From an uncultured Actinomycetes bacterium (GTDB lineage: Bacteria; Actinomycetota; Thermoleophilia; UBA2241): a stretch of 62,601 bases of DNA. The translations under genes and the position numbers were made by a program. Location: positions 1-62,601 of the forward strand of contig CAVYCN010000016.1 of the NCBI GenBank assembly GCA_963767005.1, given 5' to 3'. The notes below the pieces were generated by a model that saw only the letters and a program-made list of their open reading frames with translations, was not told the origin of the DNA and did not search any database. This document shows, in pieces, positions 1 to 8,250 of this stretch; the stretch's first letter is position 1; each line of letters begins with the position of its first letter.

Positions 1-2
1 GC

Positions 3-167
3 CGCACGGTGTGGATCGAGGTCAAGACCGCGACTGGCCGGCAGAGCGACTACCAGGTCGACTTCGAACGGGCCGTCGTCGCCCACGGCTGCGAGTACCT
101 GCTGGCGCGCAGTTCGGCCGACGTCGACTGCCTCGTCGACTGCCTGACCGAAAGGATGTCCGCATGA
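3..167 (+). CDS. VRR-NUC domain nuclease, C-terminal part (gene truncated by window edge)
   Basis: Hand translation RTVWIEVKTATGRQSDYQVDFERAVVAHGCEYLLARSSADV matches the VRR-NUC EvK..Gr.s..Q..f......G..y...rs pattern. Stop overlaps the terL ATG (ATGA, 164-167). Confidence 0.75.
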   Translation, partial: RTVWIEVKTATGRQSDYQVDFERAVVAHGCEYLLARSSADVDCLVDCLTERMSA

Positions 168-1594
168 GCACCCGCGCCCGCATCGACCGCGCCGCCGCCC
201 TGGCCACCACTCATGCACCCGCACAGCCGAAGGGCAAGCGCCCCACGCCGCTCGAGTTCATCGAGAGCTTGTCGATCGACGACAAGGTGACGGGCGCGGC
301 TATCCCGTTCCGGCTCTGGGACAGTCAGCGCGAGATGCTGCGCCTCATCGTCGAGTCCGAGCGCCTCGTGCTGGTCAAGGCTCGCCAGCTCGGCGCCTCG
401 TGGCTCGCCCTGGCGTACATGCTCTACCTCGCCACCTTCGAGCAGGGACAGCTCTACCTCGTGGCGCGGCAGTCGCTCGAAGAATCTGCGGAGGGCATCG
501 TGCGCCTGCGCCGGATGCTGGCCTCAGTGCCCGAACGGTGGCGCTGCGAGGCGACCACCGACAACGTCTTCAGCATCGCCCTGGCGACCGGCTCGCGCAT
601 CCGCGCCCTGTCGTCGACCAAGTCGGTCGGCCGCGGCCTCGCGTCCCGCTACGTGATCGCCGACGAACTGGCCTTCTGGTCCGACAGCGAATCCCAGTTC
701 GCCGCCCTCGAGCCCGGCGCGCAACGCCTGCACGTGATCAGCACCGGCGCCGGCCCGCACGACTTCTTCCACCGCCTCTACCTGCAGGCCGTCTCGGGTG
801 AGGGCCGCTTCGTACCGGCCTTCTTCAGTTGGCGCGCCCACCCCGAACGTGATGATGCTTGGTGGCGGGCCAACGTCGAACTCGCGGCCTCGCCGACCCT
901 GGCGCGCCGCGAGTACTGCGAGCGGCCCGAGGACGCCTTCACGAGTCCGTCGGGCGTGTGGGCTGAGACGTTCTCGAGCGAGCGGAACGTCGACGACATC
1001 GAACCCGTGCCCAACTGGCAGACGGTGCGCGGAATCGACTGGGGCTACCACAGTCCCGCGGCTCTGTTCCTGCAGCTCTCACCCGCCGGCCAGCCCTTCA
1101 TCGTCCACGAGTACCTGCCGCACGACCTCGTCACCAACGAATTCGTCGCCGGCATCCTGCGCGAAGAGGCCAAGCTCGCCCTGGCCATCCCGCCGCACAC
1201 CTCCTACGTCGACCCCGCCGGCGCCCAGGTCAATGTCCAAGTGCAGACGCCCGAAGTCGAAGCCGCTCGTCGCGCCGGCCTTGCCCCCGTCTACCGTCAC
1301 AGCCTCATCCGTGAGGGCTGCACCCGCATCATGGACGCCCTGGCGGACCCCGAGCTGCCGCTTGTCGTCAGCACGCGCTGCCCATTCCTCATCGAAGCCC
1401 TCTCGAGCGCCAAGGTCGACCCCAACAAAGAGGGCGAGTATCTGAAGGACGGCTACTACGAGCACTGCTTGGACGCGCTCAGAATGATCATGCTTCACCT
1501 GCGACTCGGCCCCGTGCCCGAGTACAACCTGCCCGAACCCACGCCCGGCCCCGGCAGCGGCCTCTGGGGCCCCGGCGGCCGGCGGATCTGGTAG
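164..1594 (+). CDS. terL: Phage terminase large subunit
   Basis: Walker A-like LVKARQLGAS, Walker B YVIADELAF, nuclease motifs GIDWG and HCLDALR. Start set at ATG 164 (translational coupling). Confidence 0.9.
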   Translation: MSTRARIDRAAALATTHAPAQPKGKRPTPLEFIESLSIDDKVTGAAIPFRLWDSQREMLRLIVESERLVLVKARQLGASWLALAYMLYLATFEQGQLYLVARQSLEESAEGIVRLRRMLASVPERWRCEATTDNVFSIALATGSRIRALSSTKSVGRGLASRYVIADELAFWSDSESQFAALEPGAQRLHVISTGAGPHDFFHRLYLQAVSGEGRFVPAFFSWRAHPERDDAWWRANVELAASPTLARREYCERPEDAFTSPSGVWAETFSSERNVDDIEPVPNWQTVRGIDWGYHSPAALFLQLSPAGQPFIVHEYLPHDLVTNEFVAGILREEAKLALAIPPHTSYVDPAGAQVNVQVQTPEVEAARRAGLAPVYRHSLIREGCTRIMDALADPELPLVVSTRCPFLIEALSSAKVDPNKEGEYLKDGYYEHCLDALRMIMLHLRLGPVPEYNLPEPTPGPGSGLWGPGGRRIW

Positions 1595-1914
1595 TGATGA
1601 CCACCTCGACGACACCCGGCCGCCATCGACCCGCCAACGCCCTGACCGACGCCGCCCTCGAGCGCGCCGCCGCCGCCTTCGCGCCACCGGAGCCGGACCC
1701 CGCCGCCGTGCTGGCGCCGGCCGCCTCGCCGGACCTGGTCGACCCGCGCGCCCTGGCCGACGCCCTCGCGGCGCCGCTCAGCGCCCGCAGCCGTCGCGCC
1801 CGCCGCAAGGTTGCGCACCGGCGCAAGGTCGCCCGCGCCATCGCCGACCGCGAGCGCGAGCTGCGCCGGCGTGGGTATGTGCCCGACCGCGACGCAGACG
1901 AGGCGACGTCATGA
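1594..1914 (+). CDS. Hypothetical phage protein (Ala/Arg rich)
   Basis: ORF abuts the terL stop, with matching codon bias. Confidence 0.6.
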   Translation: MMTTSTTPGRHRPANALTDAALERAAAAFAPPEPDPAAVLAPAASPDLVDPRALADALAAPLSARSRRARRKVAHRRKVARAIADRERELRRRGYVPDRDADEATS

Positions 1915-2060
1915 CCCTGCCCGCAGAATCCCGTCTGACCGCGCTAGTGGCGCCGTACGTAGGCCATACAGCGCGTTCGCGCCCTTCCGAGGGGTCCTAC
2001 CCACCACACGCCCGAACGCCCCAAACAGGCCCACAGGGGCCGCCACAGCAAGGAGCCCAC

Positions 2061-2519
2061 ATGACAACGCAGATCCCCACCGCCAGTAGCCAGATCGCCG
2101 ACCTCGTCGCCGCTCGTCGCGCCGCCAACCCCGACGAGAAGATCGACGCCTCGTTCGCCGCCGTCCTGGCCGCCAACCCCGAACTGCGTGCACAGTACGC
2201 GCAGGAGTCCTTCGGCCCGTCGCCGATGAAGATCCCGCCCACCGCCATCGGCTCAAACCTCGGCCAGGCCGGCGCGCAGGCCGTCCAGCAGGTCGGCGCC
2301 GGGATGCCGAAGATGGGCCAGCCGCTGAGCGAAGCGGGCCCCGACAAGGCCCTCGCCGCCGCCATCACGTTGTGGTGCTGCGATCATGACCTCGACTCGA
2401 CGACCCTCGCCGGCATCGACGCCGCCCGCCTGGCCCTGCGCCGCGACCGCCCCGAGCTGTTCGAGTCATACGCCACCTGGCTCGCCGAGCAGCACGGCGG
2501 CGCCTCGGTCGAGTCATGA
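2061..2519 (+). CDS. Hypothetical phage protein, possibly scaffold-like
   Basis: AGGAG RBS before ATG 2061. Two A....L....PEL...Y motifs. Confidence 0.65.
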   Translation: MTTQIPTASSQIADLVAARRAANPDEKIDASFAAVLAANPELRAQYAQESFGPSPMKIPPTAIGSNLGQAGAQAVQQVGAGMPKMGQPLSEAGPDKALAAAITLWCCDHDLDSTTLAGIDAARLALRRDRPELFESYATWLAEQHGGASVES

Positions 2520-2716
2520 CCGCCGCCGAGCCCCGAAACGGAGTGCGGACGCCGGCCGAGGCCACGAATTATCTTCTTCGTGCCTGCGCCGAGAAGATGC
2601 GCGACGCCGAGCGCCGTGGCGAGCACCTCGGCATGCTCTCGGCCTACCTGGAACTGAACCACGACCCGGTGGATCGGGCGATCTGGAACCTCGCCGCCGC
2701 CGACGTCGCGTGCTGA
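2516..2716 (+). CDS. Hypothetical phage protein
   Basis: ATGA overlap with the upstream gene. Confidence 0.6.
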   Translation: MTAAEPRNGVRTPAEATNYLLRACAEKMRDAERRGEHLGMLSAYLELNHDPVDRAIWNLAAADVAC

Positions 2717-3387
2717 GCACCACCGCCCTGATCGTCGCCGACGCCAACCCGGACCTCGTCGCCTTCTTGGCCGGCCCGGTCGGCGCGGCGTTGCTGCGTC
2801 TGGTACCGCCGGCGACCGTTCAGCGCGCCCCCGACAAGAGCCGCCAGGCAACCGCCGAGCGCAGCCGCCAGACGAAGGAACTGCCGAAAAATGACACGTG
2901 GCCAAAATCGGCAGTTCTTGCGCAGTACCGCGAGCCGGCGTGGTCGGCGCCGCTGAAGGTCTGCACGAAGTGCGGTCACGCCCTGCCGGCCACCCTCGAG
3001 CAGTTCGGCCCACACGGCAGTACCAGCGACGGCCTGCGCTCCGTCTGCCGCCCCTGCCGGCGCACACGCAGCGTCGGCCTGCGTCGTGAGCCGCGGACGA
3101 CGGTGCCGCGCCAGCCCCGCCCCACGACGCCGGCGATCCAGCAGTGGTGCGCCCGCTACGCCGCCGAGCACCACTGCGGCGCCGATCAGGCCCGCGACGT
3201 ACTCACCCGTTGGCCGGCCGGTTGCGCCCTGGTGCACGAGCTGAAGCGCCTACGCCGGAGCCCGTACAGCCTGCCCGCGGCCCGCGCCTTCGTGCGCGCC
3301 TACCGCCAAGAGAATCCGTTCAGCGGCGTCAGAACCGCCCTCGCCGCCTACTGCCACATCGAAGAACCGACAAGGAGAATCCCGTGA
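2710..3387 (+). CDS. Phage protein with CxxC...CxxC zinc finger
   Basis: KVCTKCGHALP...F...SDGLRSVCRPC resembles the Zn finger often found N-terminal to phage HNH/EndoVII proteins. GTG start overlaps the previous stop. Confidence 0.6.
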   Translation: MLSTTALIVADANPDLVAFLAGPVGAALLRLVPPATVQRAPDKSRQATAERSRQTKELPKNDTWPKSAVLAQYREPAWSAPLKVCTKCGHALPATLEQFGPHGSTSDGLRSVCRPCRRTRSVGLRREPRTTVPRQPRPTTPAIQQWCARYAAEHHCGADQARDVLTRWPAGCALVHELKRLRRSPYSLPAARAFVRAYRQENPFSGVRTALAAYCHIEEPTRRIP

Positions 3388-4073
3388 GCATCGACTACAA
3401 CGCCCAGCGCGCCCGCCTGGCCGACAAACTGGTGGCCGCCGAGGGCGCCCGCGACGCCCTCGAAGGCGACCTCGGCGCCGCCTCCTACGCAGACCTTGAA
3501 GACGGCGGCAGCCGCGCCGCCGTCGTGGCTGCGAAGATCGCCGCGACTGAGGCCGACATCCGCGGCCTGCACGCCGCCGCCGCCGAGATCGACCGCGCCG
3601 ATCTCGCCGAGCGCGCCAAGGCCGAGGCCGACCACCGCGCCGATCTCGCCAAGCAGCTCGACCGCGCCCTCGTGGCCCTCGAGCGCGCCGACGCCAAGCT
3701 GGCCGACGAGCTGATCGCCTTCGCCGCGGCGAAGGCCGCCGCCGAAAAAGCGCAGGACAAAGCGGCCACCCTGGCCCGCCAGCTCGGCACGAAGCTGACC
3801 GGACCGGACCTGCGGCCGCGCCTGCGTTTCGCCGCCTGGAAAGCCGACGCCGCGCTGCCGCCGATGGAGTCGCTCGAGCTGCCGCCCGGCTGGACTCAGA
3901 TCGACGCCGACGCCGACCTGCGCATCAAGCGCAGTGCACGGCCGCTCCACCCCGAGCCGCGCCCGGCAGCGCCGACACGCCCGCTCGCGGCCGTCGACCC
4001 GATGCCGGCCCCCCTCCGCCCGGTCGACGAGCCGCTCGGCGAAGGGCAGATCCCGGCCGCCCTGCGCGGCTGA
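3384..4073 (+). CDS. Hypothetical coiled-coil phage protein
   Basis: AAGGAG RBS plus GTG 3384. Long Ala-rich helical sequence. Confidence 0.7.
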   Translation: MSIDYNAQRARLADKLVAAEGARDALEGDLGAASYADLEDGGSRAAVVAAKIAATEADIRGLHAAAAEIDRADLAERAKAEADHRADLAKQLDRALVALERADAKLADELIAFAAAKAAAEKAQDKAATLARQLGTKLTGPDLRPRLRFAAWKADAALPPMESLELPPGWTQIDADADLRIKRSARPLHPEPRPAAPTRPLAAVDPMPAPLRPVDEPLGEGQIPAALRG

Positions 4074-4312
4074 AGAAGTGTGGCTGAGAGTACGGGATTG
4101 CTCTCGGTCGCCGGGGCGGGTCTCGGTGTCTTCCTGCCCCACCAGCCGGCGGCCGGGCCGGGTCGCAGACTCCGCTCGGCCCGGCCGTCCGGCTCAAATC
4201 CTGAGTGCCGAGAAGTGCCGTTAGTGAACGCCAGCCCGCGACGCGGGCTCGTGAAAGGACATGAAGATGACGCATGCAGACGGAACCAAAGCCCCGCCGG
4301 CGCCCGGCCGCC

Positions 4313-4500
4313 AAGCCGTCGCCGAGCTGACGGCCGAGGGCCTGTCGCAGCGCGAGGTGGCGGACGTGATCGGGGTGGATGCCGCCACGGTCAATCGCGA
4401 TCTCGGCGTTGGAACGCAACGGACGAGCCAGACGACTACCCTCAAGATGATGAGTCCTGTGTTGCAGATACAACGCCCCCGAATCTCAGGTCGCCGGCCC
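4313..4500 (+). pseudogene. Silent alternative 3' cassette of the HTH gene
   Basis: Same HTH helix and turn as 4442-4927 but a different recognition helix (AATVNRD). It lacks the N-terminal domain and has an apparent 1-nt deletion near 4412. Confidence 0.6.
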
Positions 4501-4725
4501 GCAGGCCGCGGCGGGCGCAGCGGCCGGCGCGGCCGGCGACCCGAGCTTCGGGCGGTGAAGATTCACCGATACCCGTGTCGTCTAGAGCGTCGGTGACGGG
4601 CTCGGGTGGTGGATCTTCACCGGCAAGAGCCCTCTGATCGTGGAGCACCGTGGCGTGATCCACCCCGATCACGTCCGCCACCTCGCGCTGCGACAGGCCC
4701 TCGGCCGTCAGCTCGGCGACGGCTT
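4313..4725. repeat. Large imperfect inverted repeat with perfect 68-bp outer arms (4313-4380 and 4658-4725)
   Basis: The arms are exact reverse complements encoding AVAELTAEGLSQREVADVIGVD. Inner homology gtcgccggcc/ggccggcgac at 4490-4499 and 4531-4540. Confidence 0.95.
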
Positions 4726-4927
4726 CGCGGCGTTCCTCGATCGGCATCTTGACGTAGCCGTGGTACGTCTCCGCCCACTCGCGGCGCGTGAGGCCAAGGA
4801 GCGTGGGGACTTCGAGCTTGACGGCCAGGGCAATCGTGCGCCACCAGCCCTCGCCGATCTGCGCTAGGTTCCGCGAGAACTCAAGCGCATCATCGGCCGT
4901 AAGTGCGTTGGGGGTATCATTCGCCAT
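4442..4927 (-). CDS. HTH DNA-binding protein
   Basis: ERREAVAELTAEGLSQREVADVIGVDHATVLHD is a clear HTH. GGAAGG RBS before ATG 4927. Confidence 0.75.
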   Translation of the reverse strand: MANDTPNALTADDALEFSRNLAQIGEGWWRTIALAVKLEVPTLLGLTRREWAETYHGYVKMPIEERREAVAELTAEGLSQREVADVIGVDHATVLHDQRALAGEDPPPEPVTDALDDTGIGESSPPEARVAGRAGRCARRGLRAGDLRFGGVVSATQDSSS

Positions 4928-5401
4928 GCGGCCACCTTCCAAGCGGGGAGGGAACTGCCACGGCCGGGGACGCTGCAACGTCGCCCGGCCACCTTTCGTC
5001 TGTCATGCCTCGACCTCCAGGACGCCTTGGTCTGGATTGACCATAAGGTCCTGGCACAGTGCGGGTGAGCTACGAGGAGAACGTGCTGCCGAGGCCCTGA
5101 ACGTAAACCGGCCCGCCTCGAGTGAACGAGACGGGCCGGCTCGGGCGCGGCGTGTAGCGGGCGAGCGTGTCTGTGTGCCGGGGAGCGCTCGCCTGGTTCT
5201 TGGATTCGGTTGCGGTACGCTATGGCGGCACCGACGACGGTCATCGGGGGCGGCCTCTCTGAATGACCACGCTTTGACCACGGGACTTCGTTTTCCGATG
5301 CCCTTAGTAGCGGAACGTCGGATAACCGAAAGCGGCCAGGTGCAGGGAAGTTCCGAGACTCGGACAGGCCGAGCGCGACCCCGGATAACGCCTTCAGGGA
5401 C

Positions 5402-5446
5402 CTACGGAACCGAAGGTCGGGAGTTCGAATCTCTCCTGGCGCACCA
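5402..5446 (+). other. att site: 3' half of tRNA-Arg(ACG)
   Basis: ctacggaaccgaaggtcgggagttcgaatctctcctggcgcacca gives an ACG anticodon loop, T arm and CCA, with no matching 5' acceptor strand or D arm upstream. Confidence 0.85.
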
Positions 5447-5613: not shown

Positions 5614-8250
5614 CTACTTCACCCTGAACGTCTTCCAGGCGGTCGCCGCGGCCGTGGTTGTCGCCGTCTTTGCGATCGTGGCCCTGATGCGATAGCGGCC
5701 CGTCTTGGCGGGCTTGCAGGTGCAGCTGTAGGTGCCGCTGGCGCCGATCGTCGCCGTCGTGGTCCTGACCTTGCGCCACTTGCCGTCCGCCTTGCGCTGC
5801 ACGGTGACGGTGACCTTCTCGCCGGCCAGGCTTGACGGTGTCACCGTGCCCTTGGCGGTGAGACGTTTGCCGAGCTTCAGGGCGCCACTTTTCAGGCCGC
5901 TCAACTTGAGCGTCAGGGTGGGCGTGATGAGCGACCCCGCCCGGGTCACCGTCACGCTATAGGTCTGCTTGGCGCCATCCGCGGCGGTGACCACGACGCC
6001 GATGACGGTGGCGCCCACCTTCAGGGCGATCGGGTTCGTGACCGTGGTACCGCCCACCTGCAGGGCGCAGCTGGCCTCGCCGTCGTTGGCCGTCGGGGTG
6101 ACGGTGATGGCGGCCACGCCGTTGGCGACGCTGTCTGTGTATCTTACGGTGGCCGGCGAGAAGGCCGGCTTGAGGGTGCCCGCCGAGACCGTCAGGCTGT
6201 AGAGGGTGTCGTCGCCGGATACCCAGGTCACGGTCAGGCTGTAGGTCCGCTGGGCGCCGCTTTGGGCGGTGACCACGACGTCGATGACGTTGAAGCCCGC
6301 ATAGAGGGCGATCGGGTTGGAGACCGTGCTGCCGTACACCTGCAGGACAGAAGAGGCGTTGACGTCGTTGCTCGTCGGAGTGACGGTGATGGCACTTACG
6401 CTGTTGGCGACGCTGTCTGTGTAGTTCAGGGTGGCCGGAGAGAAGGCCGGTCTCAGGGTGCCGGCCGAGACCGCGAGGCTCTTGAGGCTGTCGTCGCTCG
6501 AGGCAGCCGCCCGGGTGACCGTCAGGCTGTAGGTCCGCTGGGCGCCGCTTTGTGCGGTGACCACGACGCCGATGACGGTGGCGCCCACCTTCAGGGCGAT
6601 CGGGTTCGTGACCGTGGTACCGCCCACCTGCAGGGCGCAGCTGGCCTCGCCGTCGTTGGCCGTCGGGGTGACGGTGATGGCGGCCACGCCGTTGGCGACG
6701 CTGTCTGTGTAGGTCAGGGTGGATGACGCGAAGGCCGGACTCAAGGTCCCTTCCGAGACCGTCAGGCTCTTCAGGGTGTCGTCCCCAGAGAGCACGCTGA
6801 CGGTGAAGCTCGTGACGCTGGTGGCCACACCGCCGGGAGTCGTGACCGTGATTCTTCCGCTCGTGGCGCCGTTCGGCACGGTCGCCGTGATCTGCGTGTC
6901 GCCGACCACCTTGAAGCTCGCACTGACGCCGTTGAAGGCGACCTTGCTGGCGGCGGCAAGACCCGTGCCGGTCAAGGTCACGCTGGCACCCACCAGACCG
7001 AAGGCCGGGCTGAAGCTCACCAGCGTGGGGGCCGGCCAGCCGCCGTTGGAGGTGGCGACAATGACGCTGGAGTAGGTGGCGCTGGTCTCGTCGTATGTGT
7101 CGCCCGCCGCCCAGCCGTCACTGGCGTTGGCGAAGGCGACGCTGTTCAGGTACGTGTTCGCGATCGCAGGCGAACTCTGTGAGCTCCAAGTGCTGCCGGC
7201 GTCGGTAGTGGCGAGGATGGTCCCGGAGTAGCCCGCCGCCCAGCCGTCACTTGGGTTGGCAAAGGCGACGACCCCCGGGGACGCGTTCGCGAGCGGGCCC
7301 GAGCTCTGCTTGTTCCAAATCGTGCCACCGTCCGTTGTGACGAGTACGGTGCCGGGTTCGCCCACCGCCCAGCCGTCACTGGCGTTCGTGAAGGCGACGC
7401 CCGTCAACGCCAGGTCGGTCGTGTCTGCGTACTGGGTGTTCCAGGTGGCGCCGCCGTCGGTAGTTGCGAGAATCACGCCGCCGATGTCTTCGCCCTCGCT
7501 GTCGGTCTTGGAGCCCACTGCCCAGCCGTCACCGGCGTTGGCAAAGGCAACGGCGTTGAGCTGCGTGTCCGCGCTCGTGCCCAGGCTCTGCGGGCTCCAG
7601 CCGGCACCGCCGTCGGTGGTGGCCAGGATGACGCCCGTGTAGTAGTCGGGCTCGTCGGCCATCACCCGGCTGTCCCTCGGGTTGAGCCAGGCGCCGTTGC
7701 TGGGAGCCAATCCGCGAGGCCCATCGCCGACGAACACGAGGGCGGCGGAGTTAGAGCCCACCGCCCAGCCGTCACTGGCGTTGGCAAAGGCAACGCCGTT
7801 GAGCGACGTGTCCTGCGCTTCGGAGGCCGAGGCCGAGTACTGGGTGTTCCAGCTGATGCCGCCGTCGGTGGTGGCGAGGATGAGTCCATTGCCGGCGGCA
7901 TCGCCGACCGCCCAGGCGTGACTGACGTTGGTGAAGGCGACGCCGAGTAGTAGCGCGGAAGTCGGTGTGCCCGAACTCTGCGCGCGCCAGTTGGTGCCGC
8001 CGTTCGTGGTGGTGAGGATGACGGGGGCGAAGGTGTCCTCGTTCCAGCCCACTGCCCAACCGTCGCTGCTGGTAGCGAAGGCGACGCCAGTGAGGTTCGC
8101 GTTCGCAAGCACAGCCGAGCTCTGAAGGCTCCAGCCGACGGCGGCCAGCGCAGCGGCCGGCAACGCCAGGGCAAGGCTGAGCAGGAGGATCACGAGGGCG
8201 AGCGGGAGCACGACGGAACGAGTGCTGGAGCGGTGGCGAGGTCGTGACAT
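5614..8250 (-). CDS. Secreted protein: YCF48/BNR-type propeller repeats, IPT/TIG domain and three cadherin-like beta-sandwich domains
   Basis: Signal peptide, repeated VAFANASDGWAVG...ILATTDGG..W, PTLVSFSP...ITATVP (IPT), three DDTL.SL.VS.GTL.PAF...Y repeats. Confidence 0.85.
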   Translation of the reverse strand: MSRPRHRSSTRSVVLPLALVILLLSLALALPAAALAAVGWSLQSSAVLANANLTGVAFATSSDGWAVGWNEDTFAPVILTTTNGGTNWRAQSSGTPTSALLLGVAFTNVSHAWAVGDAAGNGLILATTDGGISWNTQYSASASEAQDTSLNGVAFANASDGWAVGSNSAALVFVGDGPRGLAPSNGAWLNPRDSRVMADEPDYYTGVILATTDGGAGWSPQSLGTSADTQLNAVAFANAGDGWAVGSKTDSEGEDIGGVILATTDGGATWNTQYADTTDLALTGVAFTNASDGWAVGEPGTVLVTTDGGTIWNKQSSGPLANASPGVVAFANPSDGWAAGYSGTILATTDAGSTWSSQSSPAIANTYLNSVAFANASDGWAAGDTYDETSATYSSVIVATSNGGWPAPTLVSFSPAFGLVGASVTLTGTGLAAASKVAFNGVSASFKVVGDTQITATVPNGATSGRITVTTPGGVATSVTSFTVSVLSGDDTLKSLTVSEGTLSPAFASSTLTYTDSVANGVAAITVTPTANDGEASCALQVGGTTVTNPIALKVGATVIGVVVTAQSGAQRTYSLTVTRAAASSDDSLKSLAVSAGTLRPAFSPATLNYTDSVANSVSAITVTPTSNDVNASSVLQVYGSTVSNPIALYAGFNVIDVVVTAQSGAQRTYSLTVTWVSGDDTLYSLTVSAGTLKPAFSPATVRYTDSVANGVAAITVTPTANDGEASCALQVGGTTVTNPIALKVGATVIGVVVTAADGAKQTYSVTVTRAGSLITPTLTLKLSGLKSGALKLGKRLTAKGTVTPSSLAGEKVTVTVQRKADGKWRKVRTTTATIGASGTYSCTCKPAKTGRYRIRATIAKTATTTAAATAWKTFRVK
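5984..6711. repeat. 158-bp exact direct repeat (5984-6141 = 6554-6711) between cadherin-like domains
   Basis: Direct comparison, offset 570 bp. Confidence 0.9.

Follow-up and report, generated by a model that had tools for sequence, protein, structure and literature searches.

Can inversion of a short DNA segment replace the recognition helix of a regulatory protein together with the sites to which this helix binds? The question is raised by a locus near the beginning of contig C16, the first 62,601 bp of which (the window) were analysed here. In the initial annotation two head-to-head cassettes enclosed by inverted repeats were interpreted as a shufflon-like specificity switch in a phage or satellite regulator. 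According to the data presented below, the locus resembles a single rearrangement of a widespread and likely swappable module more than it does a programmed switch.

The element carrying the cassettes

Bases 1–4073 of the window contain a resolvase-like fragment, the gene of a terminase large subunit and an endonuclease VII-like gene, while no match to capsid or portal was found among the genes of the window. The main landmarks of the element outside the cassettes are the following:

164–1594, plus strand: terminase large subunit of the host element (phrog_2, E 6.5e-27)
5221–5401, plus strand: element end (att arm), 94% identical to the copy on contig C18, with TGACCAC repeats at 5264 and 5275
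5402–5446, plus strand: 3′ half of tRNA-Arg(ACG), likely attR; the whole tRNA is present in relatives, and no copy is called in the source assembly

In line with the origin initially proposed, the host element is a terminase-bearing satellite or prophage remnant. Related terminases were registered in 8 of the 89 genomes of the taxonomic family, and in the two relatives that were opened a tyrosine integrase gene lies about 4.5 kb upstream of terL, accompanied in one of them by a primase-like gene. Such a setting appears to resemble that of small phage satellites. A large terminase is unusual for satellites. The expectation that an integrase should be sought to the left is supported by these relatives, but here the corresponding position would fall left of the window, in a part that is not assembled. 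The cassettes occupy the variable right end of the element, are found in none of the 11 other genomes of the genus, and their region contains no att-arm motifs. Related small integrated elements, besides the one at 164–4073 of the window, are G007:C8 and G011:C1, as well as C2:682845 and C3:12510 of the source assembly; an integrase, a primase-like gene and a large terminase characterize this family of elements. An 878-aa secreted repeat protein (window 5614–8250) adjoins attR; in another assembly its gene is divided into two parts (P0179, P0180).

Organization of the inverted locus

The locus itself is composed of the following features; C18 denotes the contig with a sister copy of the element, and P0002 a related protein, both described below.

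4144–4194, no strand: strong hairpin, left border of the variable region, common to the C18 copy
4254–4596, plus strand: SD-like AAAGGA and an ORF from ATG 4267 (or 4261), predicted only; unrelated N-terminal residues run into the left arm and helix B
4313–4380, plus strand: left arm, exact inverted copy of the right one; a short GCCGC microhomology marks its junction with unrelated DNA
4381–4401, plus strand: recognition helix B (AATVNRD)
4408–4420, no strand: palindrome B1, reduced to 13 bp; the C18 and P0002 versions have 14 bp and stay in frame (VANAT)
4442–4927, minus strand: 161-aa gene; four-helix N-domain, three-helix HTH and disordered tail, without the C-terminal methyltransferase of its closest full-length relatives
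4461–4474, no strand: palindrome B2, GTTGCAGATACAAC
4478–4553, no strand: central GC hairpin, join of the linkers of both cassettes
4554–4567, no strand: palindrome A2, GGTGAATCTTCACC
4608–4621, no strand: palindrome A1, GGTGAAGATCCACC, with one mismatch; perfect in the C18 copy
4637–4657, minus strand: recognition helix A (HATVLHD), in frame with the 161-aa gene
4658–4725, minus strand: right arm, exact 68 bp, coding for AVAELTAEGLSQREVADVIGVD of the 161-aa gene

The arms are identical over all 68 bp (0 mismatches) and, as was claimed from the start, end exactly at the HTH turn, namely at the codon for D of VIGVD. Their inner end is the point where cassettes of different alleles diverge throughout the family. 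The lack of mismatches means that the event is recent or that the arms are kept equal. In the 3.44-Mb assembly only eight exact inverted repeats of at least 30 bp were found with copies up to 5 kb apart: two represent an IS inserted into itself, five are 30–44 bp long and one is formed by the C16 arms, the IS element's own repeats being the only longer ones. This IS3-type element (C2:677117–679657) is inserted in an inverted self-copy with nested repeats of 563 and 707 bp and lies beside another terminase element; an assembly fold-back was considered for this nested structure and rejected. A 44-bp exact inverted repeat is situated between two convergent paralogous genes of solute-binding proteins (C12:83919–85677), and with a second, 30-bp pair further out this may be an invertible or converted locus.

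Both helices and both pairs of palindromes were found where they had been described, with spacings of 54 bp (A) and 53 bp (B), and within the whole assembly the tight palindrome motifs are confined to the cassettes. The second HTH copy, that of cassette B, is matched by the family HMM with E 6.8e-17. In silico flip of the 277-bp segment between the arms keeps the frame through helix B. After the flip both operator pairs remain in place, within 220 bp, and, with no other copies of the motifs in the assembly, any effect of a switch would have to be exerted in trans.

The homology suggested for the centre of the locus was reproduced for the inner halves of the cassettes (global alignment score 43 against a mean of −19 and a maximum of 15 in 300 shuffles), but the centre itself is a GC hairpin that is also present in the single unduplicated linker of C18 (−30 kcal/mol there and −38.8 kcal/mol in the window). 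It aligns with this linker about equally well in both orientations (scores 89 and 93.5). Differences of the window from the C18 copy cluster in the hairpin and in both first palindromes. Cassette B, previously regarded as silent, is not clearly so: the AAAGGA motif at 4254–4259 precedes by 7 nt the ATG at 4267, which is in frame with the arm and helix B. Its short palindrome, initially noted along with an apparent frameshift, does exist, but it is private to the C16 contig (C18 and P0002 are intact), and the frame is shifted only after the helix. The DNA outside the left arm bears no relation to the N-domain (alignment score 18, shuffles 20). Scanning of the locus for promoters and terminators gave none, the hairpin at 4144–4194 not being called a terminator as it has no T-run.

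The protein and its family

In the structure model of the 161-aa protein the 60-aa N-domain is entirely helical (four short helices), the recognition helix spans residues 91–101 with pLDDT of about 90, and disorder follows. The C-terminal cargo domain of the family, a methyltransferase or a helical region, is absent, and the protein ends in a low-confidence tail; closest full-length relatives of the gene are Dam fusions. The nearest distinct relatives share 48–56% identity with E values down to 1.8e-31. A profile built from 11 relatives collected 378 representatives at E<=1e-30, and the best 150 of these 378 were taken for detailed analysis, which comprised 156 proteins, 154 of them with an HTH anchor (a few misplaced). 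They form an unnamed phage family with a small N-domain, an HTH, two in-gene 14-bp palindromes and often a DNA methyltransferase (often PF13384 with PF05869), which was found in 19 of the 33 scanned representatives longer than 250 aa. One member (L046, 1257–2450) has a long C-terminal domain where others have the methyltransferase, and we take this domain to resemble the Gp37/Gp68 radical-SAM protein. Repeated HTH units characterize two family matches, P0101 (640 aa, 8 matched stretches) and P0050.

No ParB domain was recognized: there is no Pfam ParB match at E 0.1, and the HTH part matches only phrog_1033 (E 0.004). Fold searches gave only generic HTH matches over 42–45 residues (best Z 8.7 for LsrR; 7.2 for KorB), the search of viral models gave none at E<=0.001, and the atlas comparison returned HTH clusters only. 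No matches were obtained by scanning viral contigs with the single protein query. Scans with DNA patterns matched 1 viral, 18 metagenome and 11 genome stretches; of the metagenome stretches 12 belong to the family, of the genome stretches none, others being chance matches that were dropped. Locus L040 was discarded as non-family and L041 as lying on the same contig as L036, while L054 and L055 proved to be one gene. Among 401 genomes of the class the family was found in the source genome only, and ten others gave generic HTH matches.

Recognition helices and palindromes are coordinated

In 94 of the 154 proteins a 5-residue word compatible with a perfect G..C 14-bp palindrome is present within 12 aa of the helix, as compared with 8 on average and 12 at most after shuffling, and this word usually recurs about 18–25 residues further on. 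At the DNA level palindromes were registered in 11 of 15 family loci and in 41 of 440 control windows. Covariation was estimated for the 106 of 154 proteins with a callable site, bases being back-inferred from peptides. Helix position 0 tracks palindrome base 4 (MI 1.08, null 0.17; D→G in 49 of 50 cases), position 1 tracks base 2 (MI 1.28, null 0.27; Q→A 23/24, E→C 14/17) and position 6 tracks base 5 (MI 0.98, null 0.11; R→C 76/77, other residues 1/29). Three cross pairs stay at their null levels (0.13/0.11, 0.16/0.16 and 0.19/0.20), as would not be expected from plain linkage. The nearest neighbour by helix shares 2.24 of the 3 bases, the nearest by N-domain 1.31 and a random protein 1.18. 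With phylogeny controlled, only 3–5 independent pairs per trait are available, too few for significance to be reached; the direction agrees (4.9 of 5 for R→C), with p of 0.06 at best.

Both cassettes of the window conform to this code: D, H, H of helix A correspond to G4, G2, A5, and D, A, R of helix B to G4, T2, C5. Unrelated family members with the sequence of helix B carry VASAT or VANAT, and the nearest relative by helix A has GENSP. The correspondence between helix and palindrome that was suspected in the window extends, residue by base, to the family as a whole. Since the helix and the palindrome covary across the family and both cassettes of the window fit the code, the palindromes are likely to be the protein's own putative sites.

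One could suppose instead that the palindromes are co-inherited marks, such as recombination or replication sites residing in the same block, rather than operators of the HTH. Helix and sites do lie within about 100 bp and travel together, and the operator role is deduced from sequence. Yet only particular pairs of positions covary, the cross pairs remaining at the null level, and the residues concerned lie at the beginning and on one face of the predicted recognition helix, which makes this supposition highly improbable.

Exchange of the whole block is suggested by four other sets of genes (P0005/P0006, P0162/P0164/P0165, P0170/P0171 and P0166/P0168), which are near-identical and differ only in the helix and palindrome stretch. 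Their N-flanks are 85–95% and C-ends 85–100% identical, while the palindrome stretch is only 19–38% identical; the database is clustered at 90%, which hides identical cassettes and inflates the impression of swapping. Since near-identical genes share flanks and differ in the cassette, the helix-palindrome cassette is likely exchanged family-wide, its left edge probably being the HTH turn everywhere.

Sister element and the origin of the arrangement

The sister copy of the element is situated at positions 143463–144822, in the last 1.4 kb of C18. Besides the att arm, it shares with the window 187 identical bp on the other side. It is inserted in a heavy-metal-chaperone gene at a GAC core by the same element end as at the tRNA-Arg junction of the window; the gene is interrupted here and whole on C14:80502, so that some members of the population have probably received the element at a secondary site. 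Both cassettes are present on C18 with 92–96% identity, in reversed polarity with respect to the att end. They stand back-to-back, joined at a CGATCA microhomology without N-domain or arm, i.e. the same two cassettes are connected at opposite ends. Each runs into a methyltransferase piece, cassette A into the methyltransferase domain; for the C-terminal piece the match is weak (E 0.013). Only C18 retains such remnants. The element also includes an excisionase-like gene of the HTH_17 type, to which a piece of the methyltransferase is fused in inverted orientation. No single inversion yields the C18 layout, and we found no simple pathway from one layout to the other.

P0002, encoded by a 3,630-bp Logan contig, has the N-terminus of the window protein letter for letter, helix B in frame and an intact palindrome. 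It matches the in silico flip through residue 100, and agreement with the B side of the window extends to 32 of its last 41 residues. Beyond the second palindrome the sequence departs from the flip product and runs along the C18 linker instead. The predicted alternative protein is thus supported by an independent contig as far as the N-terminus and helix B are concerned, but its tail is not that of the flip product. An assembler operating with short words could also walk from the N-domain through the arm into cassette B. The reciprocal product (left N-terminus with helix A) was not found; this carries little weight, as that ORF is passed over by gene callers.

With roughly even confidence we assume that two alleles, A and B, of a helix-palindrome cassette from a phage HTH-methyltransferase gene family were fused head-to-head once by illegitimate recombination and are passively flippable by homology, without being a programmed switch. 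In the parent phage a presumed dimer would bind two palindromes in its own reading frame and damp its own operon, that is the methyltransferase and downstream early genes, and cassettes would be exchanged between co-infecting phages via recombination in conserved flanks. The satellite may have acquired two alleles, joined in its variable end at microhomologies, with the methyltransferase lost; the junctions (GCCGC at the left arm and the GC hairpin in the centre) would then be scars of microhomology or template switching. The shared 68-bp flank would make the piece flippable, any flipping being occasional and needing no dedicated enzyme. Unrelated DNA outside the left arm and the different, CGATCA junction on C18 favour such a single fusion, as does the rarity of the layout: among 16 other family loci (downstream sequence of 600 bp or more being available for 13; the window served as positive control) none has a second cassette or inverted arm. 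What speaks against it is P0002, as well as the fact that two independent accidents joining the same alleles are not parsimonious, since C16 and C18 both carry both cassettes, in opposite orientation and with reversed polarity to att.

The same observations bear on a selected reversible switch, in which the N-domain would receive helix A or B through inversion between the arms, and both proteins would serve the satellite in trans against helper phages with A- or B-type palindromes in their own HTH-methyltransferase genes. Exact in-frame arms, conformity of both cassettes to the family code, the agreement of P0002 with the in silico flip and the reversed polarity on C18 are consistent with it, and a consensus built from reads of both orientations could look like the garbled centre. 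The 85-bp repeat of pneumococcal spnIII hsdS inverts at about 1–2% without its recombinase or RecA (PMC6620402). Nevertheless, the 16 family loci and the 11 other genomes of the genus lack the layout, the last residues of P0002 follow the C18 linker, the combination of left N-terminus with helix A did not appear, the methyltransferase is lost, and with both operator pairs close by after the flip nothing changes in cis. As had been stated initially for the window, no recombinase is seen, and this applies to C16 as assembled; the assembly has no serine resolvase (PF00239), and none of its 9 tyrosine recombinases is on C16. Such a switch is possible but doubtful. Its fullest version, in which a satellite two-state invertible switch changes the recognition helix within an exchangeable helix-and-operator unit of about 100 bp, obeying a nearly one-residue-one-base code and facing two operator types of helpers, seems unlikely. 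Since the layout does not recur and is known from assembled sequence, the locus is not filed here as a programmed inversion.

An artificial origin has also to be considered: single-cassette genes of two strains (N-domain with A and N-domain with B) could be joined by the assembler or by fold-back at the GC hairpin. The assembly does mix strains, its contig ends overlapping others over 3 kb at 92–100% identity, and the metal-chaperone gene is present in both states. P0002 could simply be an allele with a single cassette. The window departs from the C18 copy in its centre and in both first palindromes, and this copy itself lies at a contig end. Errors of this kind have been reported for long-read metagenome assemblies (10.1101/2025.04.22.649783). 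Fold-back, however, would repeat one cassette on both sides rather than give A and B, and a second real junction would be required, since the DNA beyond the left arm shows no relation to the N-domain. On C18 the two cassettes are present as well, joined differently. Three overlaps within the same strain show only 0–2 differing letters in 3,000, and the assembly contains no other unexplained long inverted repeat. We consider a chimera quite unlikely, and retain the single fusion of two alleles as the preferred explanation.

Relation to known systems

In-gene sites are familiar from parS, located inside parB/spo0J, and from lambda O, whose gene contains the ori iterons, direct repeats for replication, while operators of lambdoid immunity are non-coding. 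To our knowledge, neither lambda O and lambdoid immunity modules nor M.Ecl18kI have been described as invertible, and known cases of inversion act on restriction, pilus or tail genes.

The locus resembles hsdS and other programmed inversions (PMC6620402, PMC9881135) in having inverted repeats inside a coding sequence and an oppositely oriented donor of a DNA-recognition module. A flip would change sequence specificity in both cases, and the spnIII repeat is similar in length and needs no known recombinase. The module of C16 differs in consisting of one HTH helix with its own likely target sites on a 277-bp segment; its layout is non-recurrent, has no recombinase nearby and is known here in its assembled orientation. 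Intragenic invertons (PMC10028968) likewise recode a part of a gene by in-gene inversion, and the HTH clan is enriched among their genes; those are recoded from the opposite strand, whereas C16 would bring a paralogous cassette in frame. With ParB/Noc and parS/NBS (PMC7383237) the family would share an HTH acting on a palindrome, with specificity set by few residues; it lacks the N-terminal (CTP-binding) domain of ParB, and its specificity is hypervariable. As with parS, the palindrome presumably read by the HTH lies within the gene; it covaries strongly with the helix. The HTH-fused methyltransferase M.Ecl18kI (PMC2760811) differs in its non-coding operator.

In the open literature at the level of listings and abstracts no description of the family or of an invertible helix-plus-operator cassette was found, though similar cases may be contained in the inversion lists of PMC9881135 and PMC10028968. 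If the segment does flip, the specificity of a transcription factor would be changed by inversion, a case for which no description was met there either. The family offers hundreds of natural HTH variants, each with a likely binding site beside the helix and a simple residue-to-base code. The usual problem of specificity change would be solved here by protein and site travelling as a single block. The code makes rules of HTH recognition directly testable and could supply orthogonal repressor-operator pairs. Cassettes A and B on one N-domain make a ready natural pair for comparison of binding, and the near-identical gene sets provide a ready-made natural series of specificities.
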